In this document: positions 4,687 through 63,538 of the stretch, piece by piece | How the letters are laid out: each line of letters begins with the position of its first letter | Position numbering within the stretch: the first letter of the stretch is position 1 | From: an uncultured Candidatus Saccharibacteria bacterium | GTDB taxonomy: Bacteria; Patescibacteriota; Minisyncoccia; Phycocordibacterales; JACNGX01 | DNA: 64,000 nt | Direction of reading: 5' to 3' | Assembly: GCA_964621395.1 (NCBI GenBank) | Contig: CAZULS010000001.1 | Location: 135,920 to 199,919, forward strand | Program-made: the position numbers and the translations under genes | Notes under the pieces: model-generated | Databases searched by the model: none | What the model saw: the letters and a program-made list of their open reading frames with translations, nothing else | Told to the model about the DNA's origin: nothing

Positions 4687-4698
4687 TTTTCCCCTTCC

Positions 4699-5070
4699 TT
4701 AATTTTTTACATATTTCCGTTCGTTCAGAAAATGGTTGGCCGCTGCCCCAATAAGCCAAATTGAGGGAAGTAATATTGCTGCAATGGTGGCAGTGAGAAT
4801 AGATACATAGGATTTCTCTGTAGTGGTTACAGTTATAAATATTATTCCAGACGCAACTATGCCCACATAGCTGGCATTCCTGAGTTGTTTTAAAGTTCCC
4901 GTTTTCATTTTGGGCATGAATACGAGCGAAAAGAGCATTGTGATGATATAGAGTATGATGATTTCCATTTTCCCTCCGTTTTTGTTCAAGTACAAGTTAC
5001 ATAAAGAAATATTTCCTGCCCGCATAATTGCACAAGTTTGACATCTGTTCAAAGAAGTGCTGCAAAACAT
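4699..5070 (-). CDS. Hypothetical small membrane protein
   Basis: 123-aa ORF; several hydrophobic helices (IIILYIITMLFSLVF, IVASGIIFITV, ILTATIAAILLPSIWLIGAAA); 13-bp gap to the upstream ORF. Confidence 0.3.
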   Translation of the reverse strand: MFCSTSLNRCQTCAIMRAGNISLCNLYLNKNGGKMEIIILYIITMLFSLVFMPKMKTGTLKQLRNASYVGIVASGIIFITVTTTEKSYVSILTATIAAILLPSIWLIGAAANHFLNERKYVKN

Positions 5071-5124
5071 TCATTTTATAAACAAATAGTTGAAAAATAG
5101 CACAAAGAGATGTATGGTTGAAAT

Positions 5125-5967
5125 ATGCTTTCATTCTATAAGGGAATTGAAAATGATATCATTGCTCATCTCACAGAAGGGCCGCTTCCGGCAAAAACAC
5201 TGGTGAAAACGATTGTCGCTGAGCGAGGAGTGACCGACCAGGGCGTGTATAAGGCGCTGAAATATCTTATCGACGGAGAGGTGGTGACGAAAGAAAAGCG
5301 GTCTGTTGGTTTATCGCATGCATGGGTGGAGCGCCTTGTTGCTTTTGCTGACGATGTGGCTCGAAAATATGAAATGAGTGACATGAACGATTTTCTCCGC
5401 CTCAACGACAAAGAGAAAGTATCATATACGTTTACTGAATATTTTAAATCCGATATCCATTGGGCACATATCTTTTTTCTCCTTGCCAAGCGGACTGATG
5501 CGCCGATTTTTCTCCTTTCTCCACACAATTGGTTTATTATTGCGCGTCCGGATACCGAGTCGGTTTTGTATGATTGGGCTAATCGTTCAAAACGGCATAT
5601 GTACACGCTCACAAAAGGTAATACCGCACTTGATCGTGCTGCACAAGCTACAATTGAAAGTGATTTTGTGCACTTTTATCACGATGAAGAGATGAGCACG
5701 CCGCTCAATCGCTTTGTAACAGTTATCGGTGATTTTATTTTTGAATTCATCATTCCGGAACGCATTGCCGACACAATGGAAGAATATTATGCAACATACA
5801 CCGAGTTTAATGAGGAAAGTATCGGTGCATTCCGCGCGCTCAGCGATACAAAGTGGCCGGCAAAATTTACCGTTGAAAAAAATGCGAAAAAAGCACTTAA
5901 ACTCCGCCGGCGCATAGCCAAAGATTTTTTCATTCCGGCAGACGTAAAGGAGAAGTGGCTGACCTGA
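5125..5967 (+). CDS. Hypothetical protein, possible N-terminal winged-helix domain
   Basis: 280-aa ORF; the N-terminal approx 70 aa have a wHTH-like pattern; no catalytic motif recognised. Confidence 0.3.
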   Translation: MLSFYKGIENDIIAHLTEGPLPAKTLVKTIVAERGVTDQGVYKALKYLIDGEVVTKEKRSVGLSHAWVERLVAFADDVARKYEMSDMNDFLRLNDKEKVSYTFTEYFKSDIHWAHIFFLLAKRTDAPIFLLSPHNWFIIARPDTESVLYDWANRSKRHMYTLTKGNTALDRAAQATIESDFVHFYHDEEMSTPLNRFVTVIGDFIFEFIIPERIADTMEEYYATYTEFNEESIGAFRALSDTKWPAKFTVEKNAKKALKLRRRIAKDFFIPADVKEKWLT

Positions 5968-6034
5968 GTATATATGTCAAGAAGTTATACACAGTGTGCT
6001 TGACTTTTTTACATAGTTCGCATAAAATGTCATT

Positions 6035-6742
6035 ATGACCAAGAACACACATAAAGAATTGATGTCCACTATCAAATCGTTGCGGACCGAGAAAGGATTC
6101 TCGCAGGAGCAGACAGCTTCTGCTATCGGCGTTTCGCGCCCGACCTATACAGCCATTGAAGCAGGTAAGCAAAAACTTGATGTTGAAGAGGCGAAAAAGC
6201 TCGCGGTGTTTTTAGGTATTGATGTTGAAGATATCGTGTATGAAGATGTGTCGAATTTGGAAAAGTATAAACACATGATTCTTGCATATCTTCGCGCAAA
6301 GGTGTCGGACGATGGAAAGGTGACAAAGACGAAACTTGCCAAACTCTTGTATCTGGCTGATTTTGCGTGGTATTACGATCACATGAAAAGTATGAGTGGT
6401 ATGCGATATCGTCGTTTACAGTATGGTCCGGTACCAGACATGTTTTTTCGCGCACTCGCGGAGCTTGAAGACAGTGGGAAGATTGTTGTGGAACGGAAAG
6501 ATATGGAGGAAAGAGAAATGTTTCTTATTAGCGAATCTGAGAGCAACAAGAACGATCCTCTTGAGAAGGTGGGAACTGATGAGGTTTCCCTTATTAAGAG
6601 CATCGCAAAAAAGTGGAAAGATAAAAAAACGCAAGATATTGTGACTTTCACACATAATCAATTGCCATATCGGATTTGTCGTGATAATGAGATTATCCCT
6701 TATGAGCTCATCACACAGGAGGATTCCGACCTGGTGTATTAG
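6035..6742 (+). CDS. Antitoxin candidate: N-terminal XRE-family HTH + C-terminal Panacea (DUF4065/SocA-like) domain
   Basis: HTH: LRTEKGFSQEQTASAIGVSRPTYTAIEAGKQKL. Panacea-like core: TKLAKLLYLADFAWYYDHMKSMSGMRYRRLQYGPVPDMFFRAL (KLLYLAD ... Y.YGPV pattern). Downstream ORF starts 4 nt after its stop. Confidence 0.55.
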   Translation: MTKNTHKELMSTIKSLRTEKGFSQEQTASAIGVSRPTYTAIEAGKQKLDVEEAKKLAVFLGIDVEDIVYEDVSNLEKYKHMILAYLRAKVSDDGKVTKTKLAKLLYLADFAWYYDHMKSMSGMRYRRLQYGPVPDMFFRALAELEDSGKIVVERKDMEEREMFLISESESNKNDPLEKVGTDEVSLIKSIAKKWKDKKTQDIVTFTHNQLPYRICRDNEIIPYELITQEDSDLVY

Positions 6743-6745
6743 GGT

Positions 6746-7150
6746 ATGCCAGGGACATGTTCTGTTACAATTGAATCTTTTGCGGAAAGTCATTATGTGA
6801 AGACGTTTGAAAAGAGGCACAAGTGGCACTGGGATGTAACTCGTCGCGCCATTATCGCCGAGCTTGAACGTATTGAAGCACTTCTTCTCACCGACAAGGC
6901 GGATTGTATTTGTGAGCAGGATGGTGTTGCCATTGTAAAAGTGGATTTCAAGGTGGCGGGAACAAAAGGGTCAGCAAAAAAGTCCGGTAACAGATGTATT
7001 GTTGCGTGGCATAAAGATAATGAAAAAGTCTCTATACTTTTGTTATACGGAAAGACAAATTTGCCAGGTAGAGGGAAAAATGAGACCGCGGTATGGAAAA
7101 AGATGGTGAGAGAGCAGTATCCCGAATATAGATATTTGCTAAAGAGCTAG
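6746..7150 (+). CDS. Toxin candidate partnered with the Panacea-domain antitoxin; weak RelE/ParE-superfamily-like C-terminus
   Basis: 134 aa; operonic with 6035..6742 (4-nt gap); C-terminal KSGNRCIVAWHKDNEKVSILLLYGK resembles the RelE/ParE beta-strand core (g.yR.iy.v ... v.il.i.h); otherwise unassigned. Confidence 0.35.
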   Translation: MPGTCSVTIESFAESHYVKTFEKRHKWHWDVTRRAIIAELERIEALLLTDKADCICEQDGVAIVKVDFKVAGTKGSAKKSGNRCIVAWHKDNEKVSILLLYGKTNLPGRGKNETAVWKKMVREQYPEYRYLLKS

Positions 7151-7282
7151 CACGCTTATTTTGCTTGCACCCGACCCGCAAATATGCTTAAATAGTGGGC
7201 ACAACGAAAGAAAGGGGATTTTGGCGTCTGGCTGGACTCTTTTTATTTTCTTTTTTATTTCTGACTTTTGATTTTCAGTCCT

Positions 7283-7372
7283 ATGGGAACTTCGTTAAAG
7301 AACAAACGCAAAAGTGTGAAGCGTCGTCGTCGCAAGAAAATGCGTCGTCAGAATCGCTTTAAGAACAAATAA
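7283..7372 (+). CDS. 29-aa highly basic peptide, possible bS22-like ribosomal protein (MGTSLKNKRKSVKRRRRKKMRRQNRFKNK)
   Basis: Not in ORF track (<60 aa). ATG 7283, TAA 7370-7372, immediately followed by terminator AAACCGCC-CTCGAG-GGCGGTTT + T-run (7375-7410). Composition and length resemble the ~30-aa actinobacterial/bacteroidete bS22. Confidence 0.35.
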   Translation: MGTSLKNKRKSVKRRRRKKMRRQNRFKNK

Positions 7373-7374
7373 CG

Positions 7375-7410
7375 CAAAACCGCCCTCGAGGCGGTTTTGC
7401 GTTATTTGTT
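7375..7410 (+). terminator. Rho-independent terminator after the basic mini-ORF
   Basis: AAACCGCCCTCGAGGCGGTTT hairpin + TTGCGTTATTTGTT. Confidence 0.6.
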
Positions 7411-7551
7411 CAGGAATATGAAAAACGAAATATGGAATATGGTGTACGGCGTAGCTTCGCTCTGTCGCACGCTCGAAACTCGAAACTTGACTCTCGAAAC
7501 TCAACGAAAAAACTCCGCGGTGCGGAGTTTTTTCGTAAGTGGGTGATGCGT

Positions 7552-7824
7552 TTATTTCACCGCATCCTTGAGGGCTTTCGCCGCACGGAACTTCGGTACG
7601 CGCTGCGCGGGAACCTGAACGGCTTCACCGGTGCGCGGATTGCGTGCCGTGCGTGCCGCACGCATCTTTGCCGAGAAGATGCCGAGACCCGCGATGGACA
7701 CTTCGTCGCCCGCCTTCAGCGTGTCAACGATTGCATCAAGCATTGCGTCTACGGCGCGTTCAGCGTCCGCTTTGGTGCTGCCGGTTTTTTCCGCAACAAC
7801 ATCAACGATAGCTGCTTTATTCAT
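7552..7824 (-). CDS. hup: HU family DNA-binding protein
   Basis: 90 aa from MNKAAIVDVVAEKTGSTKADAERAVDAMLDAIV ... GLGIFSAKMRAARTARNPRTGEAVQVPAQRVPKFRAAKALKDAV; canonical HU/IHF arm motif RNPRTGE. The track ORF 7552..7896 has a 24-aa N-terminal over-extension. Confidence 0.85.
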   Translation of the reverse strand: MNKAAIVDVVAEKTGSTKADAERAVDAMLDAIVDTLKAGDEVSIAGLGIFSAKMRAARTARNPRTGEAVQVPAQRVPKFRAAKALKDAVK

Positions 7825-11390: not shown

Positions 11391-11594
11391 ATGTATGAGA
11401 AGCTGAAGAATTATGCGACGAGGATTGATGCCGAGGCGGACGGCGCAGTGCTGAAAGTGCACGGTGTTCCCTACATATTGTCATCCGACGATGCCGGTGG
11501 CATGCGCCCCGATGTTGGGATGTCAACGGGAGGCGTGTGGCTGTCTGTTGATGAAAAAGACATCGACACGGCACGAACCATTCTCAATGTATAA
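11391..11594 (+). CDS. Small DUF2007-like protein
   Basis: 67 aa from MYEKLKNYATRIDAEADGAVLKVHGVPYILSSDDAGGMRPDVGMSTGGVWLSVDEKDIDTARTIL; resembles the DUF2007 fold pattern; a -10-like TATATACT lies 10 nt upstream. Confidence 0.35.
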   Translation: MYEKLKNYATRIDAEADGAVLKVHGVPYILSSDDAGGMRPDVGMSTGGVWLSVDEKDIDTARTILNV

Positions 11595-11636
11595 TTTTTT
11601 GTCTATTAATTTCCTAATTTTTTAATCTCCTAACCT

Positions 11637-23583: not shown

Positions 23584-23870
23584 AATAGTAAGTGTTAGGA
23601 GATTAATGATTAGGAGACTAAAAGAATGCAATCTCTTATTTTTAATATTTAATTTCCTAATGGCTAATCTCCTTTTATTAAAAATACCGGTGCACAAAGC
23701 ATCGGTCATCGTGAATACAGTATATCGCATGCAAGAGAAAAGTCAAGCGAGATGTTCCCTCGCCTTCATTTGTCTATAACGAAATACGTATCATGCCGAG
23801 GTTATATGTTTTTATACACACGCATAACCGATATTTCAGGTGTGTGTCTGATATACTATATATGAATACA

Positions 23871-24069
23871 TAGAACCAGTCTCACTGAAAACGTGAAAAA
23901 AATAAGAAGATCGTATTCAAGAGCTTCGCTTGACAGTTCTCGCACCCACACCGCGGCTGCACCTTGTCGCTCAACCGCACCGCACGAGAAGTGCGGCACG
24001 GTCTCCGCGACATCGGTTCGCTCGCGGTGTGGGTGCGAGAACAAGCCATTTTCAGTGAGACTGGTTCTA
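23871..24069. mobile_element. Family-D MITE (approx 200 bp), TIR TAGAACCAGTCTCACTGAAAACG / CATTTTCAGTGAGACTGGTTCTA
   Basis: Internal sequence homologous to 59423-59620; lies between nusA and pilB. Confidence 0.7.
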
Positions 24070-24088: not shown

Positions 24089-25843
24089 ATGCATGCCGAT
24101 GAAACACAATTGAAAACATTTATTGTTGATTCCGGACTTATTGCCGCAGACGATCTCCTTGCGGCGGAGAAGAAGGCCAAAAAAGGGAAAAAGGCGCTCA
24201 AGGAGGTAATTCTCTCTGAAGGGCTGCTTTCGGAAGACGATCTGAGACGAGTGGAGGCGCATGTCTTTGGTATTCCCTTTGTGAATCTGAAAAATCATAA
24301 GATTGATTTTGAACTCCTTTCACTTATTCCGGAACCGATTGCGCGACGTCACAATATTATCGCCTTCAAAAAAGGAGAGGGTTCTTTGGAGGTTGCCATG
24401 CTTGATACCGATGATCTGGCAGCTATTGATTTCATCAAAAAGAAGGTGGGACTGAAAATATTGCCGCGTATTACCGATACGGCATCAATTAAGTCGGCAC
24501 TGTTGCAGTATCAAAAAAACCTCAAGGCTGAATTTGGCGACATGATTAAGGAAGAAGCAGAGGTTCTGAAGGCGGTACCGGAAAGTAAAGAAGGAGAACA
24601 GCTTTCAGAGGGTGATTTGAAAAAACTCGCTGAAGATTTACCGGTGGTGAAAATTGTCGATTCGCTCTTGAAACATGCCATTGTGCAAAATGCCTCCGAT
24701 ATTCATATTGAGCCGCAGGAAAAGGAACTTCTCATTCGCTATCGTATCGATGGTATTCTCCACGATGCCATGGTGTTGCCGAAGGCTGCGGGTCCCGGTA
24801 TTGCCGCTCGCGTAAAAGTGCTTTCAGATCTCAAACTTGATGAAAAGCGCTTGCCGCAGGATGGCCGTTTTAAAATCATCCAGAATGAAGAGAAGGTGTC
24901 GTTTCGTGTGTCCACCATCCCGACCGCTTTTGGCGAAAAAACAGTGATGCGACTTCTCCGTGAGCGCTCAAGTGGCTTCACGCTCGAGACACTCGGTTTT
25001 CACGGGGTGGGTGAAGAGCGTATTCAAGAAGCAACACGGCAAAAGACCGGTATGATTCTTGTGACCGGACCGACAGGATCGGGAAAGACGACAACGCTCT
25101 ACACCATTCTTGATATTTTGAATACTCCGGAAGTAAATATTTCCACGGTAGAAGACCCGATTGAGTATCAGGTGCCGCGCATCAATCAGACACAAGTGCG
25201 GCCGGATATTGGTTTTACCTTTTCAAAAGGATTGCGTGCGCTCGTGCGTCAGGACCCGGACATCATTCTTGTGGGCGAGATTCGTGACACCGAAACGGCA
25301 AGTCTTGGTGTGAACGCTGCCCTTACCGGTCATTTGGTGCTTTCCACGCTCCACACCAATTCCGCCGGTGGCACCATTCCGCGTATGCTTGAGATGGACG
25401 TGGAATCTTTTCTCCTTGTCTCCACAGTGAATGTTATTATCGGGCAGCGACTCGTGAGAAAACTCTGCGACACGAAAGAAAAATATTTCTTGACCAAGAG
25501 TGAAATTACGCAGCTTGGCGAAGAAGCGAATCTTGATTTGGTGATGACATACCTCAAGGAGGAGAAGGTGGTCGATGCGAAGGCAACATGGGAAAAGATT
25601 CCGTTTTATAAGCCAAAGAAGAGTGCACAGAGTGAAAGTGGATATTCCGGACGTATCGGTATTCATGAAATCTTACGCATGTCTGATGGTATCCGCACTC
25701 TTGTCATGGCAGACGCGACAGCTCATGAGATTCAAGAGCAGGCGCGGAAAGAAGGTATGATGACAATGCTTGAAGACGGTATCTTTAAGGCGGCGGCAGG
25801 AACAACGAGTATTGAGGAAGTGCTTCGCGTTGTGTCGGAATAA
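24089..25843 (+). CDS. pilB: Type IV pilus assembly ATPase PilB (GspE family)
   Basis: 584 aa; N-terminal GSPII domain, Walker A GPTGSGKTT, Asp/His boxes. Confidence 0.9.
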   Translation: MHADETQLKTFIVDSGLIAADDLLAAEKKAKKGKKALKEVILSEGLLSEDDLRRVEAHVFGIPFVNLKNHKIDFELLSLIPEPIARRHNIIAFKKGEGSLEVAMLDTDDLAAIDFIKKKVGLKILPRITDTASIKSALLQYQKNLKAEFGDMIKEEAEVLKAVPESKEGEQLSEGDLKKLAEDLPVVKIVDSLLKHAIVQNASDIHIEPQEKELLIRYRIDGILHDAMVLPKAAGPGIAARVKVLSDLKLDEKRLPQDGRFKIIQNEEKVSFRVSTIPTAFGEKTVMRLLRERSSGFTLETLGFHGVGEERIQEATRQKTGMILVTGPTGSGKTTTLYTILDILNTPEVNISTVEDPIEYQVPRINQTQVRPDIGFTFSKGLRALVRQDPDIILVGEIRDTETASLGVNAALTGHLVLSTLHTNSAGGTIPRMLEMDVESFLLVSTVNVIIGQRLVRKLCDTKEKYFLTKSEITQLGEEANLDLVMTYLKEEKVVDAKATWEKIPFYKPKKSAQSESGYSGRIGIHEILRMSDGIRTLVMADATAHEIQEQARKEGMMTMLEDGIFKAAAGTTSIEEVLRVVSE

Positions 25844-25845
25844 AA

Positions 25846-26046
25846 CATTACGAATAACGAATAACGCGAATATACGAATACACAATCATACCATTCTTGA
25901 CTCACGTATATGTCTGTCGCTATACGCTGTACCGAAACACCACAAAGAAACAATATTGACGCTACATGTTAATCGTAAGTCCGAAGCAGAGAAGCGACCC
26001 ATTCGTATATTCGCATCATATTCGTAATTCGTAATTGTTCGTAACT
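25846..26046. mobile_element. Family-B ACGAAT-rich MITE (approx 200 bp), copy 1; TIR ATTACGAATAACGAATAACGCGAATATACGAATACACAAT ... ATTCGTATATTCGCATCATATTCGTAATTCGTAAT
   Basis: Four near-identical copies occupy every spacer of the pilus cluster; diverged or composite copies at 45279-45446, 53449-53645, 54254-54420, 56216-56322, 61812-61858. Confidence 0.75.
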
Positions 26047-26158
26047 AAAAACACACGAAGATCCTGAATCAAGTTCAGGATGACATCGAAAGTGGTTTAT
26101 ATGTCAAAAATCAGATTCGTATGTTCGTACCGATTCGTAATTCGTAATTTGTTTATCC

Positions 26159-27376
26159 ATGCAGTTTACCTATACCACCATTAATAAGGAAGGGGAGCGG
26201 GAAGAAGGGCGTGCCTATGCGTCTGACAAATTTGCGCTTTCAGCACTTCTGAAAAAAGAAGGGAAAACACTTGTCTCCGCCGAAGAGGTGAAGAAGGGAG
26301 TGTTTTCTTCGATGAAGAATATCGCTCTCTTTAAGCGTATCTCAATGGATGAAAAGATTATGTTTGCGCACAACCTCGCAGCCATGACGCGCGCAGGACT
26401 TTCTCTCTCGCGGACACTTTCCATTCTTGAGCGGCAAAGTACGAATACACGTTTTAAGGAAGTAATGAATGCTCTTGCCGAGACGATTAAAAAGGGAGGA
26501 ACATTGGCCGATGCACTGCGGGAATTTCCCACAGAGTTTTCGCCGCTCTTTGTCTCTATGGTGCATGCCGGTGAAGAATCGGGCGGCTTGGCTGATGCGC
26601 TCGAAGTGGTGGGAACACAAATGAAAAAGAATCATGAGCTTGTAAAGAAGGTAAAGGGTGCCATGATTTATCCGTCGATCGTGATTGGGGTGATGGTACT
26701 TGTCGGGATAGTGATGATTGTGAAGGTGGTGCCAACACTCACGGCGACATTTGTTGAACTCGATGTTGAGTTGCCTGCTGCGACAAAGATTTTGATCGCT
26801 GTCTCTGACGCACTGCGAGACCATTTCCTTCTTGTGCTCTCCGGGGGAGTACTTCTCATTCTTCTTTTTGTATACGCAATGAAAACACAACGCGGTCGGG
26901 AGATTAAAGATGCGCTGTTGCTCCGCATGCCTCTTATCGGTGGTTTTGTCCGAGAATTCAATGCCGCACGCACAGCACGCACACTCTCTTCTCTTCTCTC
27001 TTCAGGGGTTGATATCGTTCAGTCGCTTGTCATCACGCGTGATGTGATTCAAAACACGCAATTTAAGAACACAGTGAGCAGCGCTTCGGAACGTATCCAA
27101 AAAGGCATACTGCTTTCCGTGCTCTTTTCCGAGGAAAAGGCAGGTGCACTCTATCCGATTTTGTTTTCCGAAATGATTGCCGTGGGAGAGGAGACGGGAA
27201 AAGTATCTGATATGCTTGAAGAAGTGGCGCTGTATTATGAAGGTGAGGTGGAAGCGGCAACGAAAAATATGTCGACGATTGTTGAGCCGATTCTCATGCT
27301 CATTGTGGGTGTTGTGGTGGGATTTTTCGCTCTTGCCATGATTACACCGATGTATAGCGTCATGAGCGGAATATAA
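26159..27376 (+). CDS. pilC: Type IV pilus inner-membrane platform protein PilC (GspF family)
   Basis: 405 aa; two GspF repeats and three TM segments. Confidence 0.85.
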   Translation: MQFTYTTINKEGEREEGRAYASDKFALSALLKKEGKTLVSAEEVKKGVFSSMKNIALFKRISMDEKIMFAHNLAAMTRAGLSLSRTLSILERQSTNTRFKEVMNALAETIKKGGTLADALREFPTEFSPLFVSMVHAGEESGGLADALEVVGTQMKKNHELVKKVKGAMIYPSIVIGVMVLVGIVMIVKVVPTLTATFVELDVELPAATKILIAVSDALRDHFLLVLSGGVLLILLFVYAMKTQRGREIKDALLLRMPLIGGFVREFNAARTARTLSSLLSSGVDIVQSLVITRDVIQNTQFKNTVSSASERIQKGILLSVLFSEEKAGALYPILFSEMIAVGEETGKVSDMLEEVALYYEGEVEAATKNMSTIVEPILMLIVGVVVGFFALAMITPMYSVMSGI

Positions 27377-27566
27377 ATTACGAATGACGAATAACGCGAA
27401 TATACGAATACACAATCGTACCATTCTTGGCTTACGTATATGTCTGTTACTATACGTTGTACCGAAACACCATAAAGAAATATTATTAGTGCTAAATGCT
27501 AATCGTAAGCCCGAAGCAGAAAGAATACCCTTTCGTAGATTCGTATCATATTCGTAATTCGTAATA
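27377..27566. mobile_element. Family-B MITE, copy 2
   Basis: Starts 1 nt after the pilC stop; the right TIR ends 16 nt before the next ORF. Confidence 0.75.
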
Positions 27567-27632
27567 TAAAGAGAAGTATTTATGTCAGAAAACTTCCTCA
27601 AACCATATATAGCAAGACGAAAGGACAAAGGG

Positions 27633-29363
27633 ATGAATCTTTCCCGTGGGTTTACCTTCATCGATATTCTCATTGGCATGGCGCTGATGTTGATTGTGTT
27701 TGTTTCTCTCGTCGGCGTGTTTCGTATGAGTATCGGCGTCATCGTACAGAGCAAGGCGCGAGTGGGTGCCCTTGCGCTGGTCCAGGAACGAGTGGAATTT
27801 CTCCGAAGTCTTTCATACGACGAGGTGGCAACGGAGAATGGTATCCCCGAAGGATCTCTTAAGCAAGAAGAAGCAATTACGCTTAACGGTATTCTCTACG
27901 AAAGACGTACGTTTGTGCAATATGTGGACGCACCCCAAGACGGTACGGGAAATGATGATGAGAATAATGTCCCCACCGATTATAAGGTTGCCAAAGTGGA
28001 AGTTTCTTGGACGGTGAGCGGCGTTGAAAAGAGCGTGGCGGCTGTCACCAATGTGATGCCACCCGGTATTGAAACCAATGAAGGGGGTGGGACGCTCATC
28101 ATCGAAGTGTTTGACGCTCTTTCCTCGCCCGTACAAGGAGCGACGGTGCATATCGTAAACACAAACATTGCTCCGGCGGTAGACGTGGAGGTTTCTACCA
28201 ATGAGAATGGACGGGTGATGTTTCCGGGAAGTCCGTCGGCAAACGACTATGAAATGACTGTGACAAAAAACGGATATAATTCAGCACAAACACGCGATGT
28301 AACCGCCGAGTTGCCTGTGCCGCTTCCCGGGCATGTGTCTGTTTTGGAAGGAGAAACAACAGAGGTAAGCTTTGCCATCGACCTTTTGGGGAGTTTGCGC
28401 ATTGATACGTGGCTGCCCATATTGCCGTATGTGTGGGAAGATACAATGGATACAACAGCACAGATGCAGTTCTTCAACCAAATCGCGCTTTCCTTCGGCA
28501 GTGTGGCCCTGGGAGACAGTGGTCATGGATATTATACAAACGGATCAATCATGTCTGAGGACATAACGCATACGTATCTTGATTCTTGGGATGCGTTTTC
28601 CTGGAGCGACACAACGCCTCCCGGTACCACTATTCTGTACCATGTGTACGATGCCGATACGGATACGCGTATTCCCGATGTGGTGCTTCCGGGAAATGCG
28701 GCAGGATTTTCTTCTTCTCCGGTGTCGCTATCTCTCCTTGCGCCTGAAACATACACAACGCTTTCTGTGGAAGCTCTTTTTGAAACATCTGCAACGAGCA
28801 CAACACCCGCGCTTCATGAATGGAGTGTATCATATGAAGCCGGACCAATTCCCGTGGGAGACGTACCATTTTCTCTTTCAGGAACAAAGTCTATCGGTTT
28901 TGACGGCGAGGGAGAACCGGTACTTGCCTACGATACCAATCAGGTAACAGATGCAAACGGTAACATCGTCATCGATCTTCTGACGTGGGATACGTATACG
29001 GTTATCGTTGATGATGATGCGTCGGGATACGATGTACGGGCATTGTGTCCGGAGGCACCGTTTGGAGTTGATCCCGGTGAGAATGAAGAAGTGGATATCT
29101 ATCTTGCGCCCGATACACAGCACTCTCTTCGAGTGATTGTCTATACGACTGAGCCGGCACCGGCAGCAGGTGTGGATGTGGAGCTTTCACGGAGTGGATT
29201 TTCCGCGGAAGAAACAACCGACTCATGTGGACAGGCCTTTTTTGCAGATCTTGTCTCTTCAAGTAATTATGTTCTCAGTGTGGACGATTCTCCCTTTGGT
29301 ACTGGAACGGTGAGCGATGTGTCGGTGGATGGTGTGTCGTTTGAAGAGGTGTGGTTGGAGTAG
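27633..29363 (+). CDS. Large pilin-like protein with prepilin-type N-terminal cleavage/methylation domain
   Basis: Leader MNLSRG then FTFIDILIGMALMLIVFVSLVG (class III signal; Asp at +5 instead of Glu); 577 aa; C-terminal region with repeated beta-rich segments. The track ORF starts 17 codons earlier (27582). Confidence 0.6.
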   Translation: MNLSRGFTFIDILIGMALMLIVFVSLVGVFRMSIGVIVQSKARVGALALVQERVEFLRSLSYDEVATENGIPEGSLKQEEAITLNGILYERRTFVQYVDAPQDGTGNDDENNVPTDYKVAKVEVSWTVSGVEKSVAAVTNVMPPGIETNEGGGTLIIEVFDALSSPVQGATVHIVNTNIAPAVDVEVSTNENGRVMFPGSPSANDYEMTVTKNGYNSAQTRDVTAELPVPLPGHVSVLEGETTEVSFAIDLLGSLRIDTWLPILPYVWEDTMDTTAQMQFFNQIALSFGSVALGDSGHGYYTNGSIMSEDITHTYLDSWDAFSWSDTTPPGTTILYHVYDADTDTRIPDVVLPGNAAGFSSSPVSLSLLAPETYTTLSVEALFETSATSTTPALHEWSVSYEAGPIPVGDVPFSLSGTKSIGFDGEGEPVLAYDTNQVTDANGNIVIDLLTWDTYTVIVDDDASGYDVRALCPEAPFGVDPGENEEVDIYLAPDTQHSLRVIVYTTEPAPAAGVDVELSRSGFSAEETTDSCGQAFFADLVSSSNYVLSVDDSPFGTGTVSDVSVDGVSFEEVWLE

Positions 29364-29366
29364 CAA

Positions 29367-29557
29367 AATTACGAATGACAAATAACGCGAATATACGAAT
29401 ACACAATCGTACCGATAGAAGTTCTTATATTCGTATTATCACAATCTATTGTAATGGGAGATCACAAAGAATATATACGTGTCATATGATAAACGTAAGC
29501 CCGAAGCAGAAAGAACACCCATTCGTAGATTCGTATTATATTCGTAATTCGTAATAT
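29367..29557. mobile_element. Family-B MITE, copy 3
   Basis: As above. Confidence 0.75.
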
Positions 29558-29611
29558 TAAGAAGAATACATGTTTCATCATTCCAAACAATTGAAAAAAG
29601 AAAGACGACGG

Positions 29612-30217
29612 ATGAATGTATCGCGTGTTTCCGGTATCTCCATCGTAGAAATGGTTGTATCAATTGCAATGGCAACATTTGCCATTGTTGCTATCGGCTC
29701 GTTTACCATATCGTTTTATCGCACTAATGCCTACGGTATCGAACAATCGTTTGCCATCCATTCTGCCCGTAAAGGTATCGACCTTATGGTGCGTGACATC
29801 CGTGAAGCAACCTATTCTGACGAGGGGAGTTTCCCTGTGGTATCAATCGCACCGTATGCAATGGTTGTGTACAGTGATGTTGATCGTGATGATTCAGTAG
29901 AGCGCATCAGTTTTTCGCTTGAGGGTACAAACCTTATCCGAGGAAAAGCTGAGAGTGCAGGCGATCCGCCGGTATATCCGGGAGAGAACGATGAAGAGTA
30001 TAGCGTTTCCGATTCCGTCCGCAACGAAACGTATGGAACACCGATATTTCAATATTATGATGAATCAGGAAATGAAATTACCGACTACGACGCTGTGACC
30101 GATGTGGTGTTTGTGACCGTGAATGTGTTGGTGAATATTAATCCGAGTCGTTTGCCGCGTGATTTTTCTTTGCGTTCCAGTGCGTCATTGCGAAATACGC
30201 GTGTCGGTACGGAGTAG
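29612..30217 (+). CDS. Pilin-like protein (prepilin-type N-terminal domain)
   Basis: Leader MNVSRVSG then ISIVEMVVSIAMATFAIVAIG (G | hydrophobic helix with Glu at +5); approx 201 aa mature. The track ORF begins 14 codons earlier. Confidence 0.6.
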   Translation: MNVSRVSGISIVEMVVSIAMATFAIVAIGSFTISFYRTNAYGIEQSFAIHSARKGIDLMVRDIREATYSDEGSFPVVSIAPYAMVVYSDVDRDDSVERISFSLEGTNLIRGKAESAGDPPVYPGENDEEYSVSDSVRNETYGTPIFQYYDESGNEITDYDAVTDVVFVTVNVLVNINPSRLPRDFSLRSSASLRNTRVGTE

Positions 30218-30220
30218 CAG

Positions 30221-30408
30221 AATTACGAATGACGAATAACGCGAATATACGAATACACAATCTACCATTCTTGGCTCACGTATATGTCTGTCGCTATACG
30301 CTGTACCGAAACACCACAAAGAAATATCTTGGCATAAGACGACAGCCACAAGCCCGAAGCAGAAAGAATACCCATTCGTAGATTCGTATCATATTCGTAA
30401 TTCGTAAC
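30221..30408. mobile_element. Family-B MITE, copy 4; right end carries TATAAT 9 nt upstream of the next ATG
   Basis: As above; sequence ...TTCGTAACTGTAGTATAATAGAAACAATATG. Confidence 0.75.
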
Positions 30409-30428
30409 TGTAGTATAATAGAAACAAT

Positions 30429-31832
30429 ATGAACGATGTACATTCCTCTCGCGGATATATGATGATTATGGTGCTGGTGTTTGGCGCCGTGTTTATTACA
30501 CTCATGGGTGGTTTGTCGGGGTTTGTGTTGATGCAAAAGAACGTTACTGAGAAAAAAGAGTATGCCGAACAGGCGCTTCAAATTGCCGAAGCGGGACTCG
30601 AATATTACCGATGGTTTCTTTCCCACAACCCGGGTGATACAACAGACGGGACCGGAGAACCCGGTCCCTATGAGCACATCTATGCCGATCCGGAAGGAGG
30701 AGATATTGGAACGTTTTCTCTCAATATCGCAGGGACTGTCTCATGCAGTGAAATTACCTCCATTGATATTTATTCAACGGGATGGGTTGATGCTGATCCT
30801 GATGTGACGCGAACGGTATACGGCAAATATACTCGTCCGTCTGTCGCCGAATATGCGTATGTCTTAAATGATAATGTATGGGCGGGAAGCGACCGACAGA
30901 TTTATGGTCCGTATCATTCCAATCTTGGTATTCGCATGGACGGAACCAATCACTCTATTGTGACATCAGGCGTGGAAGAGTGGCGATGTACGAGCAGCTT
31001 TGGCTGCTCTCCTTCGCGGGATGAGAGCGGAGTATTTGGTGACGGACCCAATACCGAACTATGGGACTTTCCCGCGGAGACGGTTGATTTTGTGGGCATC
31101 TCCGTTGACCTGGTGCATATGAAAGATCGCGCGCAAAACGGAGGCGGTTTGTATTTTCCCAAAGTATCAAATTGGCGAAACCGTGAGGGATACCGCGTGA
31201 TTTTTCGGGAGAGCGGCACCATTGATGTCTATGAGGTGACGAGCACGCGGAGGGTATGGAGTGAGCCGGTCGGACGCGCCACGGAAGATAATTACGAAAG
31301 AATTCATTCGCAGCACTATGTGGGGAATTATGACATACCGGAGGAGTGCAGTTTACTGTTTTTCGAAGATAATCTGTGGGTGGAAGGAGAGGTGGAAGGA
31401 AGAGTAACGCTTGTATCCGCCAACGTGACTGATCCGGGAACCGATACCAACGTGTACCTCATTGATGATATTACCTATGCAGATACCCAGAGCGGGTTGA
31501 CGCTTCTCGGTGAGCACTCGGTCTTGATTGCGTACGATGTGCCGTATAATCTTGAACTTCGCGGTATTTTCATCGCACAAATGGGATCGTTCGGGCGGAA
31601 TTATTACAATCCATGGTGGTTGTCGCTCTCTAAGCGAGGAGTGCTTGAAATGACCGGCAGCATCGTATCCAACGGACGCGTGGGAACAAAGTGGACGTCT
31701 TGGGGATCCCATGTATCGGGCTTTGCACAGCGATATAACTCCTATGATCGACAGCTTGCGGGGGATCCGCCACCGTTTACGCCGTATATGGACGATGAGT
31801 ATCGTTTTGTCGAGTGGCGACAGGAGGAATAA
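30429..31832 (+). CDS. PilX-like pilus assembly / minor pilin protein
   Basis: 467 aa; N-terminal TM helix then QALQIAEAGLEYYRWFL, matching the PilX N-terminal domain pattern (A..AEAG). Confidence 0.5.
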   Translation: MNDVHSSRGYMMIMVLVFGAVFITLMGGLSGFVLMQKNVTEKKEYAEQALQIAEAGLEYYRWFLSHNPGDTTDGTGEPGPYEHIYADPEGGDIGTFSLNIAGTVSCSEITSIDIYSTGWVDADPDVTRTVYGKYTRPSVAEYAYVLNDNVWAGSDRQIYGPYHSNLGIRMDGTNHSIVTSGVEEWRCTSSFGCSPSRDESGVFGDGPNTELWDFPAETVDFVGISVDLVHMKDRAQNGGGLYFPKVSNWRNREGYRVIFRESGTIDVYEVTSTRRVWSEPVGRATEDNYERIHSQHYVGNYDIPEECSLLFFEDNLWVEGEVEGRVTLVSANVTDPGTDTNVYLIDDITYADTQSGLTLLGEHSVLIAYDVPYNLELRGIFIAQMGSFGRNYYNPWWLSLSKRGVLEMTGSIVSNGRVGTKWTSWGSHVSGFAQRYNSYDRQLAGDPPPFTPYMDDEYRFVEWRQEE

Positions 31833-31920
31833 TGGTTGCTGGTCCTAGTTGGCGCGGCTTTCGCCGCGCCTTTTCCAATGTCCCCTGGTATTCCGCTTAT
31901 GTATGGGGGATAATATATGT

Positions 31921-32997
31921 ATGATGTCTACCCCACACATGGTGCGTCGCATTATATACGGTGCTTTTGTACTAATCATCGGATGTGTATTCTTGGTTCC
32001 GATTGCATACGCAAACCCTCATCAAAATATAGATGATGGAGGAACAGGTTCAGGTACCAACGGCTACGTCCTCCTCGAACCCAGTATTCTCGTTCAAGGA
32101 GGAGGCAAATCCGCAAGTCCCGCCGACTATCTCGAAAACATCTTCTACTTTATGATCGGCACAGCCGGTGTCTTGGCAGTCCTTGTATTTGCCATTGGCG
32201 GTATTCAGTTTATGGTCTCAGGTGCCACTCCTTCTGCAAAGAAGGAAGGACAAGAAAAAATGACTGCCGCCATCTTCGGACTCATCCTCGCTCTCGGCAC
32301 CTGGCTTATTTTAAACACTATCAATCCGGATTTGGTGAAGAAGTTTGACTTGAAGCTTGATACGGTGACGGTGACGGGGAGTGGGGGAACGGGAAGCGGA
32401 ACGAGCACTCCGGGGAACCTTCCCTCAAATCTTCCCATAGGATGTTCGAATTATAAGAATGCTTTTATCAATGCGGCAAACACTGCAAAAATTGACGCGT
32501 GTCTTCTCTATGCGGTTGCATCACAGGAGTCGGGCTGTAATCCCGGTTTGGTAAGTAAGGCGGGTGCATGTGGCATTATGCAAATGCTTCCCTCAACAGC
32601 AAATGCCTCATGCAACTGGCTCAAGACAAATCCCGAAGCAAGTATTCTCAGGGCGGCTTTTTATCTGAAAAGCAATGCAAACGGATTGCATGCATATGAC
32701 AGTATGTTTGATATCGGTAATGCATATGGTCAATCAGGAAAAACAGTGCAAGTTGGTGGCTTTATATATGATACGGGGAACGATGATCTCATTGCATCGT
32801 ACAATGCCGGAAATGGTACGGTATCAACAAATGGTCGAGGACCATTTTCCCTCTCCCAAGATTGTCCAAAATCAACATATGGGACGAACATCCCCGCATG
32901 GCAATGTCATATCAATCCGGGAGGATTTGATGAAACACAAAATTATGTTCGTCGCGTGCAGTCATATCAGGATATGTGTAATCTGAAAGGGTTGTAA
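31921..32997 (+). CDS. Fusion protein: signal peptide + VirB2/TrbC-like two-helix hairpin + lytic transglycosylase (SLT) domain
   Basis: Hairpin IFYFMIGTAGVLAVLVFAIGGIQFMVSG-ATPSAKKEGQEKM-TAAIFGLILALGTWLILNTI; SLT motif AVASQESGCNPGLVSKAGACGIMQMLPSTA (ES ... GLMQ ... TA). Start placed at MMSTPHMVRR because the track start (31849) overlaps a terminator hairpin. Confidence 0.55.
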   Translation: MMSTPHMVRRIIYGAFVLIIGCVFLVPIAYANPHQNIDDGGTGSGTNGYVLLEPSILVQGGGKSASPADYLENIFYFMIGTAGVLAVLVFAIGGIQFMVSGATPSAKKEGQEKMTAAIFGLILALGTWLILNTINPDLVKKFDLKLDTVTVTGSGGTGSGTSTPGNLPSNLPIGCSNYKNAFINAANTAKIDACLLYAVASQESGCNPGLVSKAGACGIMQMLPSTANASCNWLKTNPEASILRAAFYLKSNANGLHAYDSMFDIGNAYGQSGKTVQVGGFIYDTGNDDLIASYNAGNGTVSTNGRGPFSLSQDCPKSTYGTNIPAWQCHINPGGFDETQNYVRRVQSYQDMCNLKGL

Positions 32998-33018: not shown

Positions 33019-34053
33019 ATGATTCAGAGAATGCAACGTAATATGTGGGACGTGGGTATTCTTTTGGCAATCGTGTCGTGCGCGGTTGTTGTTTTTGGGG
33101 AGCCCACACTCGCGTATAGTCCTGAAGGAACCGGCTACGCCCTCCTCGAACCCAGTATTCTCGTTCAAGGAGGAGGCAAATCCGCAAGTCCCGCCGACTA
33201 TCTCGAAAACATCTTCTACTTTATGATCGGCACAGCCGGTGTCTTGGCAGTCCTTGTATTTGCCATTGGCGGTATTCAGTTTATGGTCTCAGGTGCCACT
33301 CCTTCTGCAAAGAAGGAAGGACAAGAAAAAATGACTGCCGCCATCTTCGGACTCATCCTCGCTCTCGGCACCTGGCTTATTTTAAACACTATCAATCCGG
33401 ATTTGGTGAAGAAGTTTGACTTGAAGCTTGATACGGTGACGGTGACGGGGAGTGGGGGAACGGGAAGTACATATGATGGGAAGTTGAATGAAATTACCAT
33501 AACAAGAGAAGATGGAACAACCTACACGTTTAGGGGAATACAAGACGCATATCAAAGCTCACCTGGATTGCAGCTCGTGGGGGAGGATGGAAAGTATCTT
33601 CCCGAGAAAATAACAAAGGAAGAGGCAATGCGATATACGCTTATGAAAGATAGTGATATTGTGATTACGAGTACAACAGGAAGTTCAAAGCCATGTACCT
33701 ATCCCGGACAAACGGGATGTACGGATCTCTATGGCATGAAAGCCGCGACAATAGAAGAAATAAAATATATTGATGAAAAAACAAAGGGTCAAGTTTTGGT
33801 GACGGGCGGCACGGAACATGGGCCACATGCTATCGGAGCGTATAGTCATGGAAGTGGACATAAGGTGGACATTGATGATACATCGAATGTGACTGATTAT
33901 GTGGAGAATAATTTTATTCGAAGAAAAGATTTAGATAGAGAAGGAACACATGCTTCTCGCGCATACGAAAATCCTGACACGGAAGCCATCTGGCATCATG
34001 AGTATAAGAAGAAAACGCATTTTGATGTAGTGGTGTATCCCGAGAGACCTTAA
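33019..34053 (+). CDS. Paralog: same VirB2/TrbC-like hairpin N-terminus (approx 330 bp identical DNA) + LAS/M15-like peptidase C-terminal domain
   Basis: Residues approx 40-150 are identical to the preceding gene; C-terminal GTEHGPHAIGAYSHGSGHKVDIDD resembles the VanY/M15 motif SxHxxGxAxDI. Confidence 0.5.
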   Translation: MIQRMQRNMWDVGILLAIVSCAVVVFGEPTLAYSPEGTGYALLEPSILVQGGGKSASPADYLENIFYFMIGTAGVLAVLVFAIGGIQFMVSGATPSAKKEGQEKMTAAIFGLILALGTWLILNTINPDLVKKFDLKLDTVTVTGSGGTGSTYDGKLNEITITREDGTTYTFRGIQDAYQSSPGLQLVGEDGKYLPEKITKEEAMRYTLMKDSDIVITSTTGSSKPCTYPGQTGCTDLYGMKAATIEEIKYIDEKTKGQVLVTGGTEHGPHAIGAYSHGSGHKVDIDDTSNVTDYVENNFIRRKDLDREGTHASRAYENPDTEAIWHHEYKKKTHFDVVVYPERP

Positions 34054-37108: not shown

Positions 37109-37298
37109 GGGAATAGAATTAAGAATGAAGAGTTACGAATTAAGAATATATACAGTGTAGGGGAAAAACGGGGGTGGTGCAATATATCAGGAGATTAAAA
37201 GTTAGGAAATTAAAAGTTAAACAAAATTATTTTCCACTTTCTGTATCCTAAAAGCTCAAAGCTATAAGCTATAAGCTCGGCATGCTATACTTCTCCCT

Positions 37299-49518: not shown

Positions 49519-49619
49519 AAAGAGGAGATTAGGAGATTAAAGATTAAAAAATTAAAAAAACTATAAACGGTAAACGATACACTAAAAGTCGCCCTGACGG
49601 GCGACTTTTAGTTTGCTTA

Positions 49620-55035: not shown

Positions 55036-55089
55036 GAGCGCACGGAGTGCGCGTTAATCTCCTAACCTTTAACTTCCTAATCTCCTAAT

Positions 55090-55758
55090 ATGGAATCACC
55101 CATCTACAACGAACAAGGAAAAGAAACAGGCAAGCTCACACTTCCTAAGGAAATCTTTGGTTTGCCGAAAAATGACGACCTCGTGCACCAGGTGGTTGTA
55201 TCGATGCAGTCAAATGCACGCACCAATGTGGCGCATGCAAAAGACAGAAGCGAAGTACGAGGCGGTGGTCGCAAGCCCTGGAAGCAGAAGGGTACCGGTC
55301 GTGCGCGTCATGGTTCGCGCCGTTCACCGATTTGGATTGGTGGTGGCGTTACCCACGGACCTTCCAATGAAAAGAATTTCGATAAGAAAATCAATCGCAA
55401 GATGGCACGCAAGGCGCTCCATACGGTGCTTTCCGGTAAGATGAAAGACGGTGAGGTGATGTTTGTTGACATCTTCTCCACTGAAGAGCCGAAAGCTTCA
55501 TGGGCAAAGGGTGTTCTTCAAGCACTCGGAAGCGTGAAAGGATATGAGGCGATTGCGGAGCGCAAGAACAATGCCGTGCTCATTGCCGTGGGCGAGAAAA
55601 ACGATGCAGTATTCAAGAGCTTTGGAAACTTCGGCAACGTTGCCATCATGGAAGCACGCAATGTAAATCCTGTGGAAGCTCTTTCATACAAGCACATCGT
55701 ATTTGTGGGCCCCGAGGTATGTGTTGCACACCTTACTCGTGAAAAAGGAAATGAATAA
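55090..55758 (+). CDS. rplD: 50S ribosomal protein uL4
   Basis: RGGGRKPWKQKGTGRARHGS signature; TAATCTCCTAA tandem motif directly upstream. Confidence 0.9.
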   Translation: MESPIYNEQGKETGKLTLPKEIFGLPKNDDLVHQVVVSMQSNARTNVAHAKDRSEVRGGGRKPWKQKGTGRARHGSRRSPIWIGGGVTHGPSNEKNFDKKINRKMARKALHTVLSGKMKDGEVMFVDIFSTEEPKASWAKGVLQALGSVKGYEAIAERKNNAVLIAVGEKNDAVFKSFGNFGNVAIMEARNVNPVEALSYKHIVFVGPEVCVAHLTREKGNE

Positions 55759-57204: not shown

Positions 57205-57243
57205 AAAAAGCCGCGCAGCTCTCAAAGGATGCGCGGCTTTTGC
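57205..57243 (+). terminator. Terminator after rplB (AAAAAGCCGCGCAGC-TCTCAAAGGA-TGCGCGGCTTTTGCC), preceded by ACGATAAAC motifs
   Basis: Read directly. Confidence 0.55.
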
Positions 57244-57332
57244 CCCCCCTCACACTTTTTCCTCAAAATATGTTATATTGGGAAACACTCATTTTTAATT
57301 TCCTAATATTTAACTTCTAATCTCCTACCACA

Positions 57333-58436
57333 ATGACCGACGACCCTTCCCCTAGTGCACGCTTCATGTTCGCCCTCTATGGCGGGCTTATTGTTCTTTT
57401 TGGCATTCTCTTCTCTGTTGATACCAACATCGCCCTTGTTGCACTTCTCGTGCTGTTTTCGGGACTTTTTTCCGGTCTTACCATTGGTATTCTCGGGCTT
57501 TCTCCCGAAGATCTCAAAATTGAAGCCGATTTGGGCTCGCGCTTGGCAAAGAAGATTCTTCCGGTGCGGCAGAAGGGGAATCTCATTCTCTCCACATTGC
57601 TCGTCTCCAATGTTATCGTCAACTCCGTTCTCTCTATTTTTCTTTCCGACGTCGCTTCAGGTGTTATCGGCGGTATTATCGCCATTGCGCTCATTACCGT
57701 CTTCGGTGAAATTTTGCCGCAATCAATCGCAATCAAGCATGGTCTTAAAATGGGATATATGTCGCTGCCGCTTTTGTATGTGGTGATGACCGTGCTGTAT
57801 CCGATTACTCGCCCTGTGGCATGGGCGCTCGACAAAGCAATCGGTAAGGAATTGCCGGCAATCTATTCCAAGCGCAAACTCTCAAAGATTCTTGAGCACG
57901 TGGAGGACCAGGGAATTATCGATGAAGATGAAGAACAGATTCTTCTCGGCGGCGTGTCGTTTTCGGAGAAATATGTTGGCGATGTAATGACACCAATCGA
58001 CAAGGTCTTTCTCTTGCCCGACACCACACTTCTTTCGGGAGAAAAACTTCGGGAAATATATGAAAGCGGACACTCACGTATCCCTATCTACGATGAAAAT
58101 ATTCACGATATTGTCGGTATGTTGTATGTGAAGAAGCTTATTGCCATTAATCCCGACGACAATACACCGGTTGTAGATGTGATGAGTGACGATGTGCCCA
58201 AGGTGATGGCGAGCGAGCATCTCGATGCGGTTTTGAATAAGTTTAAGCTCAAAAAGAAGCACCTGTTTGCGGTGTATGCCACCGATTCCGACGCCGCCGG
58301 CATCATCACGCTCGAAGACATTATGGAAGAAATCCTCCAAGACGAGATTGTAGACGAGACGGATTTTAAGGAACGAGTTGAGAGTAAAAGAGGGAAGAGT
58401 CGAGAGCGTGGTTATTCGAGTACAGTGAAGAAATAG
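57333..58436 (+). CDS. CNNM/CorC-family transporter (DUF21 transmembrane domain + CBS pair), inserted between rplB and rpsS
   Basis: 367 aa; four N-terminal TM helices (DUF21), then CBS pair (DVMTPIDKVFLL ... IVGMLYVKKL ... AGIITLEDIMEEIL); TAATCTCCTAC motif upstream. Confidence 0.8.
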   Translation: MTDDPSPSARFMFALYGGLIVLFGILFSVDTNIALVALLVLFSGLFSGLTIGILGLSPEDLKIEADLGSRLAKKILPVRQKGNLILSTLLVSNVIVNSVLSIFLSDVASGVIGGIIAIALITVFGEILPQSIAIKHGLKMGYMSLPLLYVVMTVLYPITRPVAWALDKAIGKELPAIYSKRKLSKILEHVEDQGIIDEDEEQILLGGVSFSEKYVGDVMTPIDKVFLLPDTTLLSGEKLREIYESGHSRIPIYDENIHDIVGMLYVKKLIAINPDDNTPVVDVMSDDVPKVMASEHLDAVLNKFKLKKKHLFAVYATDSDAAGIITLEDIMEEILQDEIVDETDFKERVESKRGKSRERGYSSTVKK

Positions 58437-58547
58437 ACAAGTTTCGAGTATCGAGTATCGAGTTGCGAGAGTCGCGCGCTACCGCGCGCGACGATACAAA
58501 CTAAAAAACTCAAAAGCGCGACTTACGCCGCGCTTTTGGAATTGTAC

Positions 58548-59086: not shown

Positions 59087-59425
59087 ATGACACGATCGCT
59101 GAAGAAAGGTCCGTATGTGGACGAAAAATTGCTCAAGAAAATCGCCGGAAAGAAGCCGGCGGATGTTGGCGTGATTACAACATGGGCACGCGCAAGCCAA
59201 ATTTCTCCGGAAATGGTAGGTTTCAAGTTTGGTGTGCACAATGGCCGTAAACACATTGAGGTGTTGATATCCGAAGACATGGTAGGACATCGTTTGGGTG
59301 AATTCTCCCCGACAAAGACCTTCCATCGTCACGGTGGTAAGATGCAGAAAGAGCTTGAGCAGAAGAAGAAAGAAGCGGAAATCGCTGCAGCAAAAGCCGC
59401 TAAGGCCGCTGCCGACAGTAAGTAG
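59087..59425 (+). CDS. rpsS: 30S ribosomal protein uS19 with K/A-rich C-terminal extension; stop codon TAG is the first triplet of a family-D MITE
   Basis: [19 protein letters not shown] ... [17 protein letters not shown] conserved; the track ORF starts 8 codons upstream. Confidence 0.9.
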
Positions 59426-59620
59426 AACCTGTCTCACTGAAAAATATATGATAACCACAACTCTTCATTCATAAGCTGCGCTTGGCAGCTCTCGCACCCA
59501 CATTGCGGCTGTGCCTCGTCTCTCAACCTCACCGTACGACAGTACGCTTCGGTCTCCGAGACGTCGGCTCACTCGCAATGTGGGCACGAGAACAAGCCAT
59601 TTTCGGTGAGAAAGGTTCTA
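59423..59620. mobile_element. Family-D MITE between rpsS and rplV (TAGAACCTGTCTCACTGAAAAA ... CATTTTCGGTGAGAAAGGTTCTA)
   Basis: Internal sequence homologous to 23871-24069; the 5' TAG doubles as the rpsS stop. Confidence 0.7.
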
Positions 59621-60110: not shown

Positions 60111-60170
60111 AGAGCCACGTAGCGGCGACCCTTAATCTCCTAATTTCCTAACTTACTAATCTCCTAACAT

Positions 60171-63505: not shown

Positions 63506-63538
63506 TAAAAAAGCGCGGGCATACGCCCGCGCTTTTTA
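63506..63538 (+). terminator. Terminator after rplE (AAAAAAGCGCGGGC-ATAC-GCCCGCGCTTTTT)
   Basis: Read directly; near-identical to the rpsG terminator stem. Confidence 0.6.

Follow-up and report, generated by a model that had tools for sequence, protein, structure and literature searches.

Tandem, G-free octamer arrays adjoin start codons in a Parcubacteria-type genome without Shine-Dalgarno usage

In the 64-kb stretch of DNA analysed here (the window), an 8-nt, sometimes 7-nt, tandem repeat, (TAAYYTCC)n, lies immediately in front of the start codons of clpP, rplD, a CNNM transporter gene, rpsC and nusA, in a lineage that does not use Shine-Dalgarno (SD) pairing as a class. Our preferred reading, to which we give a probability of about 0.55, is that slippage has generated these arrays and that, free of G and unstructured, they act as spacers for initiation or re-initiation without SD. 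The observations behind it are the anatomy of the repeat, its orientation relative to start codons, the absence of SD usage and of predicted structure, the turnover of the sequence between relatives and the polymorphism in unit number. From these we infer that the array has an active part in promoting initiation and is not just standing in the sole orientation that is tolerated there.

Results

Repeat unit and positions of the arrays

The repeat TAATCTCCTAA is genuine, since the 64 kb hold 13 copies of TAATYTCCTAA, where dinucleotide-preserving shuffles predict 0.10. The string TAAT(C/T)TCCTAA proved to be the junction between two units of the longer tandem repeat, whose 7-8-nt units run head to tail and are scattered through intergenic DNA, as is characteristic of short tandem repeats. 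Gene identities were taken from Pfam and Logan gene calls (clpP, nusA, HIT, L3/L4/L23/L2, CNNM, S19, L22, S3, EF-G and PGK), and the 64 gene starts of the window are longest open reading frames and thus crude calls. An Rfam scan of the window returned tRNA-Gly alone, with no leader or riboswitch family. We found no paper describing TAAYYTCC arrays, and a full-text search with the sequence gave only unrelated eukaryotic primer and sequence matches.

An earlier note on this DNA had placed the tandem motif directly 5' of six start codons. For five of these genes, about 5 of the 64 in the window, this is indeed the case: the sense-strand arrays of clpP, rplD, CNNM, rpsC and nusA end 0-14 nt before the ATG, with the last YTCC at 4, 6, 6, 7 and 14 nt (Table 1). 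The sixth, the HIT gene, has to be removed from the list, as its array lies well upstream of the ATG, beyond a -10-like element. The note had also reported the reverse complement behind fusA and rplE, and it is present after both stops, followed each time by a terminator hairpin. In front of rplD and rpsC, a small GC hairpin follows the preceding stop codon and the array comes next, while the nusA leader array and its opposite-orientation copy make up an inverted pair. The clpP and CNNM genes carry -10-like elements upstream of their arrays (for CNNM, an extended TGtTATATT ending 53 nt before the ATG), so that the array sits in the 5' UTR.

Table 1. Arrays, neighbouring signals and other repeated modules, in window coordinates
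Feature	Position	Strand	Remarks
TATAAT hexamer	11590-11595	+	5' of the clpP array
clpP leader array, G-free	11602-11636	+	ATG 11637; Pfam clpP
nusA leader array	23584-23617	-	meets ATG 23583 (true start); NusA domains
Opposite-orientation array copy	23629-23672	+	nusA / pilB-like divergent spacer; ~25 nt from nusA array
TGaTATATT -10-like element, HIT gene	37181-37189	-	ends 72 nt before ATG; array upstream of element
HIT-region array	37189-37221	-	81-113 nt upstream of ATG 37108
fusA 3' trailer array, purine strand, GAGGAGATTAGGAGATTAAAGATTAAAA...	49522-49561	+
Terminator hairpin	49584-49609		after the fusA array
Small GC hairpin GCGCAC-GGA-GTGCGC	55038-55052	+	between rplC stop (55035) and array; read from sequence
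rplD leader array, TAATCTCC TAACCTT TAACTTCC TAATCTCC TAAT	55054-55089	+	fills rplC-rplD spacer; ATG 55090
Terminator	57205-57241		5' of the CNNM array
CNNM leader array, G-free	57283-57332	+	ATG 57333
Small imperfect GC hairpin GCCAC-GTA-GCGGC	60114-60126	+	after rplV stop (60110)
rpsC leader array	60128-60170	+	fills rplV-rpsC spacer; ATG 60171
rplE trailer array, purine strand, AAGATTAGGAGATTAAACATTAAAAAA	63486-63512	+	adjoins bidirectional terminator hairpin 63508-63537
ATTCGTA family			before rplC and pilus-like genes; TACGAAT after preceding stops
AACGATA family			after stops of clpP, rpsG and rplB
AAGCTMW family			before recJ and rplN
TCGAGTA family			after CNNM
REP-like hairpin TGTCATTCCGCACTTGATGCGGAATC	3408, 21279, 21391, 34906, 40396, 43598, 46524, 53508, 63803	+
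REP-like hairpin TGTCATTCCGCACTTGATGCGGAATC	21340, 26056, 40484, 43707, 45355, 47294	reverse
MITE-like element	23871-24069		upstream of, or between, genes as given in the text
MITE-like element	59423-59620		upstream of, or between, genes as given in the text
MITE-like element, partial copies	20452, 43333
Pilus-gene cassettes	25843-30429		four copies
Gene-end module AGCCTAAAGCACAACAAGTCGTGCTCGGCCACGG	36585, 39029, 60016, 63450, 63648		stop codon plus small hairpin
300-nt direct repeat	32061-32360, 33132-33431		within adjacent genes 31849-32997 and 33019-34053
CNNM/CBS transporter gene	57205-58470		has a terminator and an extended -10-like element of its own

Absence of Shine-Dalgarno usage

The EF-G of the window shares 85% identity with a Candidatus Yonathbacteria MAG protein, and its near matches all belong to Patescibacteria/Parcubacteria; judged from these sequences, the host is a CPR bacterium of the Parcubacteria type, close to Candidatus Yonathbacteria. 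SD-like 4-mers stand at -20 to -4 of 7 of the 64 window genes, against a background of 10.6%, and across about 80 metagenome ribosomal-operon loci of relatives plus a named Yonathbacteria locus they precede 41 of 618 starts (6.6%; background 10.2%). Furthermore, G makes up 11-14% of positions -24 to -1 in the window, 3-10% in close relatives and 8-11% in 585 genes of other relatives. G thus falls before starts, whereas SD sites would raise it, which again points away from SD, and we conclude that SD pairing is not used as a class in this lineage.

These counts bear on the contrast drawn earlier between the CTCCT-bearing leaders, of anti-SD polarity, and other genes with a normal AGGAG. An AGGAG is present at pgk (35097), but SD-like 4-mers in the window are no more frequent than background, and the contrast fails in a clade that shows no SD usage. 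The polarity itself loses its meaning for the same reason, and also because the CTCC core is not kept at orthologous leaders and its spacing varies. Tsurumaki et al. 2022 (PMC9297842) could detect the CCTCCT anti-SD motif in no more than 48% of the 16S genes of Parcubacteria. A search for the universal sequence of the 16S 3' region gave no hit in the window or in any of the ~200 fetched loci.

The array as leader

The five window leaders have 0-1 G within the array and no AUG, GUG or UUG inside it, and since the array is essentially G-free, such codons cannot occur there; in four of the five, UAA stops are found in all three frames. Between -40 and +20, the predicted minimum free energy of the five array genes is 0 to -4.2 kcal/mol, whereas the other 59 genes average -8.1 and random 60-mers -11.3, and the array by itself has a predicted fold of 0 kcal/mol. 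With neither a start codon nor predicted structure in the array, the first start 3' of it is the gene's own, and is predicted to be single-stranded. Among all fetched loci, TAA-periodic G-free arrays that abut the start of an open reading frame have the G-free strand as the sense strand in 45 cases and as the antisense strand in 10 (binomial p = 2e-6). Measured from the ATG, TAA showed no constant phase in the leaders of the window and of four of the relatives' loci (L118-L121).

Every unit contains TAnnnT (TAATCT, TAACCT), which might be taken for a -10 element, so that the arrays would be internal promoters giving rise to leaderless or short-leader transcripts of rplD, rpsC and other genes. 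In most array-bearing genes a TAnnnT does lie 6-9 nt before the ATG. Leaderless architecture exists in this genome as well: in 4 of 64 genes, where 0.28 would be expected, the end of a TGnTAnnnT is 6-9 nt from the ATG. However, a spacing of 6-9 nt follows automatically from an 8-nt period, and the recognisable promoters here are of the extended -10 type (TGnTATAAT), whose TGn extension is impossible in a G-free array. As clpP and CNNM have a better -10 element upstream of the array, we regard a promoter function as quite unlikely; a consensus -35/-10 scan did not rise above shuffle expectation and so carries little information. Separately, TATAAT-like or TGnTAnnnT elements 6-9 nt before the ATG (1779-2954 on the minus strand, 34119, 37299, 42543, 44658 and others) suggest that the genes behind them have leaderless mRNAs.

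Turnover at orthologous sites

A close relative (locus L118) shares 96% identity with the window in RplB and 81-88% in DNA, and yet its rplD leader reads TCACCTCC TCACTTAC TAACATAC TAACTAC TAACC, while its rplB and CNNM leaders have likewise been replaced relative to the window. In L119-L121 (RplB 81%), arrays of TAACCTCC, TAATCTCC, TAACATAC and TAACTTCC precede rplC, rplD, rplB, rpsC and rplN, and in Candidatus Yonathbacteria GCA_013335575.1 (L199) arrays precede rplC, rplD, rplB and rpsC, and purine arrays stand behind rpsG and fusA. Comparison of the orthologous spacers of the window, L118, L119 and L199 thus revealed that the presence of an array, its orientation and its freedom from G are kept, whereas the sequence has turned over; the rule of pyrimidine arrays in leaders and purine arrays in trailers also holds in all four. 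The dominant unit differs by genome, being TAATCTCC in the window and TAACCTCC in L119-L121. Over 6.4 kb in which L119 and L120 share 99.3% identity, the sole indel between them is one of 24 nt, that is, three units, in the rplB leader array. Because r-protein spacers typical of Parcubacteria measure 4-19 nt, the arrays represent derived expansions. Different tandem families are present in other relatives, some of them as inverted arms flanking a hairpin (L140, L181, L186 and L188).

Two local rearrangements were also noted. In L199, a unit made of a 494-aa open reading frame and a truncated rpsG copy is tandemly duplicated between rpsG and fusA (3634-7772). The CNNM/CBS transporter gene of the window is inserted in the S10 operon between rplB and rpsS, a position that L119 fills with a gene of unknown function and L199 with a 215-aa hypothetical.

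The turnover argues against a sequence-specific signal and makes the conserved promoter/UTR module and the specific protein or S1 binding site considered earlier less likely. A related reading has ribosomes recruited to a subset of mRNAs through the CUCC units, which would either base-pair with a changed 3' tail of the 16S rRNA (an inverted SD/anti-SD) or be bound by an RNA-binding protein devoted to this task. The units do resemble the canonical anti-SD (TAACCTCC in L118-L121), many Parcubacteria are reported to be devoid of that motif (PMC9297842), and units are uniform within a genome and different between genomes, as a co-evolving trans partner would make them. Nevertheless, the last CTCC lies 4-30 nt from the ATG overall (5-30 nt in L118-L121), the motif marks only about 5 of 64 genes, orthologous leaders either have no CTCC (TAACATAC and TAACTAC in L118) or belong to another family, and unit number is polymorphic, so that recognition of this kind seems very unlikely.

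We give similarly little weight to a broader form in which the arrays are read by a co-evolving trans partner, either a remodelled, GGAG-like 16S 3' tail or antisense purine arrays in the fusA, rplE and rpsG 3' UTRs, for which the r-protein and clpP leaders could be the targets. Homogenisation of units within a genome could indicate such a partner instead of a spacer, and together with the leader-pyrimidine/trailer-purine rule it fits one, composition alone not being fully explanatory.

The gene classes involved differ from what had been proposed. A rule tying the arrays to highly expressed genes is ruled out, because they precede the CNNM transporter gene and, in relatives, rpiB-like and dnaE genes, whereas tuf and fusA have none in front of them. 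What stands of the proposed gene-class-specific leader element is therefore a leader or intercistronic element that abuts starts in a fixed orientation, without the class specificity, and that has a bearing on initiation by ribosomes in the absence of SD.

Other repeat families in the spacers

The intergenic spacers are mosaics of tandem 7-8-mers, nearly all containing TAA, among which TAAYYTCC is one of several families (Table 1). Families such as ATTCGTA and AAGCTMW occupy the place of TAAYYTCC in front of other genes or, in a relative, in front of the orthologous gene. For instance, the rplB leader is of the ATTYGTA type in the window and of the CCTCCT/ACTAA type in L118, and the rpsG trailer, AACGATA in the window, has become GGAGATTA in L199.

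Several further modules were observed in the window, a terminator module that recurs in the spacers among them. The REP-like hairpin occurs in about 15 intergenic copies, in both orientations. A MITE-like element of about 199 nt with 21-nt terminal inverted repeats (TAGAACCAGTCTCACTGAAAA ... TTTTCAGTGAGACTGGTTCTA) is present once upstream of the pilB-like gene and once between rpsS and rplV, where the stop codon of rpsS is provided by the first TAG of the element. Type IV pilus-like genes, T2SSE and T2SSF among them, are separated by four cassettes that are nearly identical and measure about 200 nt, and each consists of a TACGAAT-heptamer arm after the stop, a core with TTGACT/TTGGCT...TATACG and an ATTCGTA-heptamer arm before the next ATG. 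The gene-end module is common to unrelated genes, recJ and rplE among them, and the two copies of the 300-nt direct repeat are 100% identical.

A different reading of the arrays is that they are neutral or selfish intergenic repeats (microsatellite, STRR or BIME-like modules) with no role in expression, which spread in a genome whose spacers are freed from SD-based coupling, the orientation bias then reflecting the purge of harmful insertions. The window is in fact crowded with REP-like hairpins, the 199-nt MITE-like element and inverted heptamer cassettes; families swap at the same site, and the number of units differs between near-identical strains. On the other hand, such repeats would not be expected to show the strong orientation rule beside starts (45 versus 10), to end only a few nucleotides from the ATG, or to be kept as G-free arrays at the same spacers of the window, L118, L119 and L199 despite complete turnover of the sequence. 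We thus hold this reading to be unlikely, while taking it seriously.

Distribution in other phyla

We searched the genomes of 185,579 species for pairs of motif copies lying close together; as no control octamer was included, the result does not imply that this octamer is commoner than others. At least 115 stretches matched, mostly as (TAATCTCC)n or (TAATTTCC)n arrays, and the matches listed include Bacteroidota, Chloroflexota, Verrucomicrobiota, Planctomycetota, Cyanobacteria and Patescibacteria. In the other phyla, among the matches listed, the arrays take both orientations to neighbouring open reading frames and are often far from starts, which fits neutral repeats. Inverted pairs of the form (GGAGATTA)n - loop - (TAATCTCC)n are frequent there (L012, L053, L103 and L109 in Chloroflexota; L039, L004 and L108), and could fold into long hairpins, by their sequence.

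Pairing between arrays was also weighed as their function. Leader pyrimidine arrays would pair with trailer purine arrays, in cis as long stems at processing sites or terminator flanks, or in trans, with fusA, rplE or rpsG 3' UTR fragments regulating the r-protein and clpP leaders. Trailers and leaders carry perfectly complementary arrays, both arms flank one hairpin in the same spacer of four relatives' loci (those named above), and the region upstream of nusA holds both arms. Yet complementarity arises automatically when one family is inserted both ways, most window leaders have no partner arm in their own spacer, and the trailer family can be exchanged for a non-complementary one, as at rpsG, so that we consider pairing the least probable of the functions discussed here.

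Discussion

Taken together, the data are best accommodated by the unstructured-spacer reading given at the outset. Replication slippage would create the arrays and add or remove whole units, and the arrays would be homogenised or replaced within each genome. A sense-strand array would give the mRNA 30-50 nt with essentially no G and no predicted structure, leaving the gene's own start codon as the first one 3' of the array, in what should be fully single-stranded RNA. We infer that the array acts there as an SD-independent loading or re-initiation spacer, possibly through S1-type binding to pyrimidine-rich single strands, the role of S1 being putative, or through simple 30S/70S access, and that the CTCC core itself would not be read. 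The purine copies after stops would be the same filler, placed upstream of intrinsic terminators; that they have no obvious link to initiation is a point against this explanation.

As about half of the Parcubacteria are reported to be without the anti-SD motif, the locus offers a concrete cis-architecture for start-codon choice. Starts here are preceded either by nothing, as in leaderless genes, or by G-free, start-free, stop-rich, unfolded repeats that gain or lose whole units. Should the arrays promote initiation, they would offer a simple, readily evolving stand-in for SD; should they have no such effect, they would show that repeats can colonise even the S10 ribosomal operon once SD coupling is lost. 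Gene callers dependent on SD will score starts wrongly in such genomes.

Comparison with known systems

The nearest functional parallel lies in the SD-independent, G-depleted, unstructured initiation regions of Bacteroidota, cyanobacteria and chloroplasts, which are driven by S1 or accessibility and which share with the present leaders the lack of SD enrichment, the depletion of G and a predicted unstructured start. The leaders of the Bacteroidota type differ in their diffuse A-rich context, whereas here pyrimidine-rich, UAA-containing tandem octamers are found and dependence on S1 is putative; more distant Parcubacteria relatives also show an A-rich upstream context.

In anatomy, the arrays resemble the STRR heptamers of heterocystous cyanobacteria and micro/minisatellites, in that 7-8-nt tandem repeats of several families are scattered between the genes of one genome and are polymorphic in copy number. 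A Calothrix match from the genome scan indeed consists of CCCCTAAT/CTCCTAAT arrays. They differ in lineage, in unit sequences and in that their orientation at start and stop codons follows a clear rule; the TAAYYTCC, ATTCGTA and AACGATA units presumably do not match the cyanobacterial STRR heptamer consensus.

As in the REP/BIME elements of enterobacteria, spacers are assembled from a few reusable modules, namely hairpins, terminators and arrays, in varied combinations, but the array here is non-palindromic and cannot fold, while its neighbouring modules are hairpins. Finally, with the SD/anti-SD pair the arrays share a short motif upstream of starts and a related sequence. They depart from an SD site in polarity, which is the wrong one, in spacing, which varies instead of holding to about 5-10 nt, in prevalence, as a minority of genes have them, and in conservation, as they are not kept in sequence at orthologous sites.
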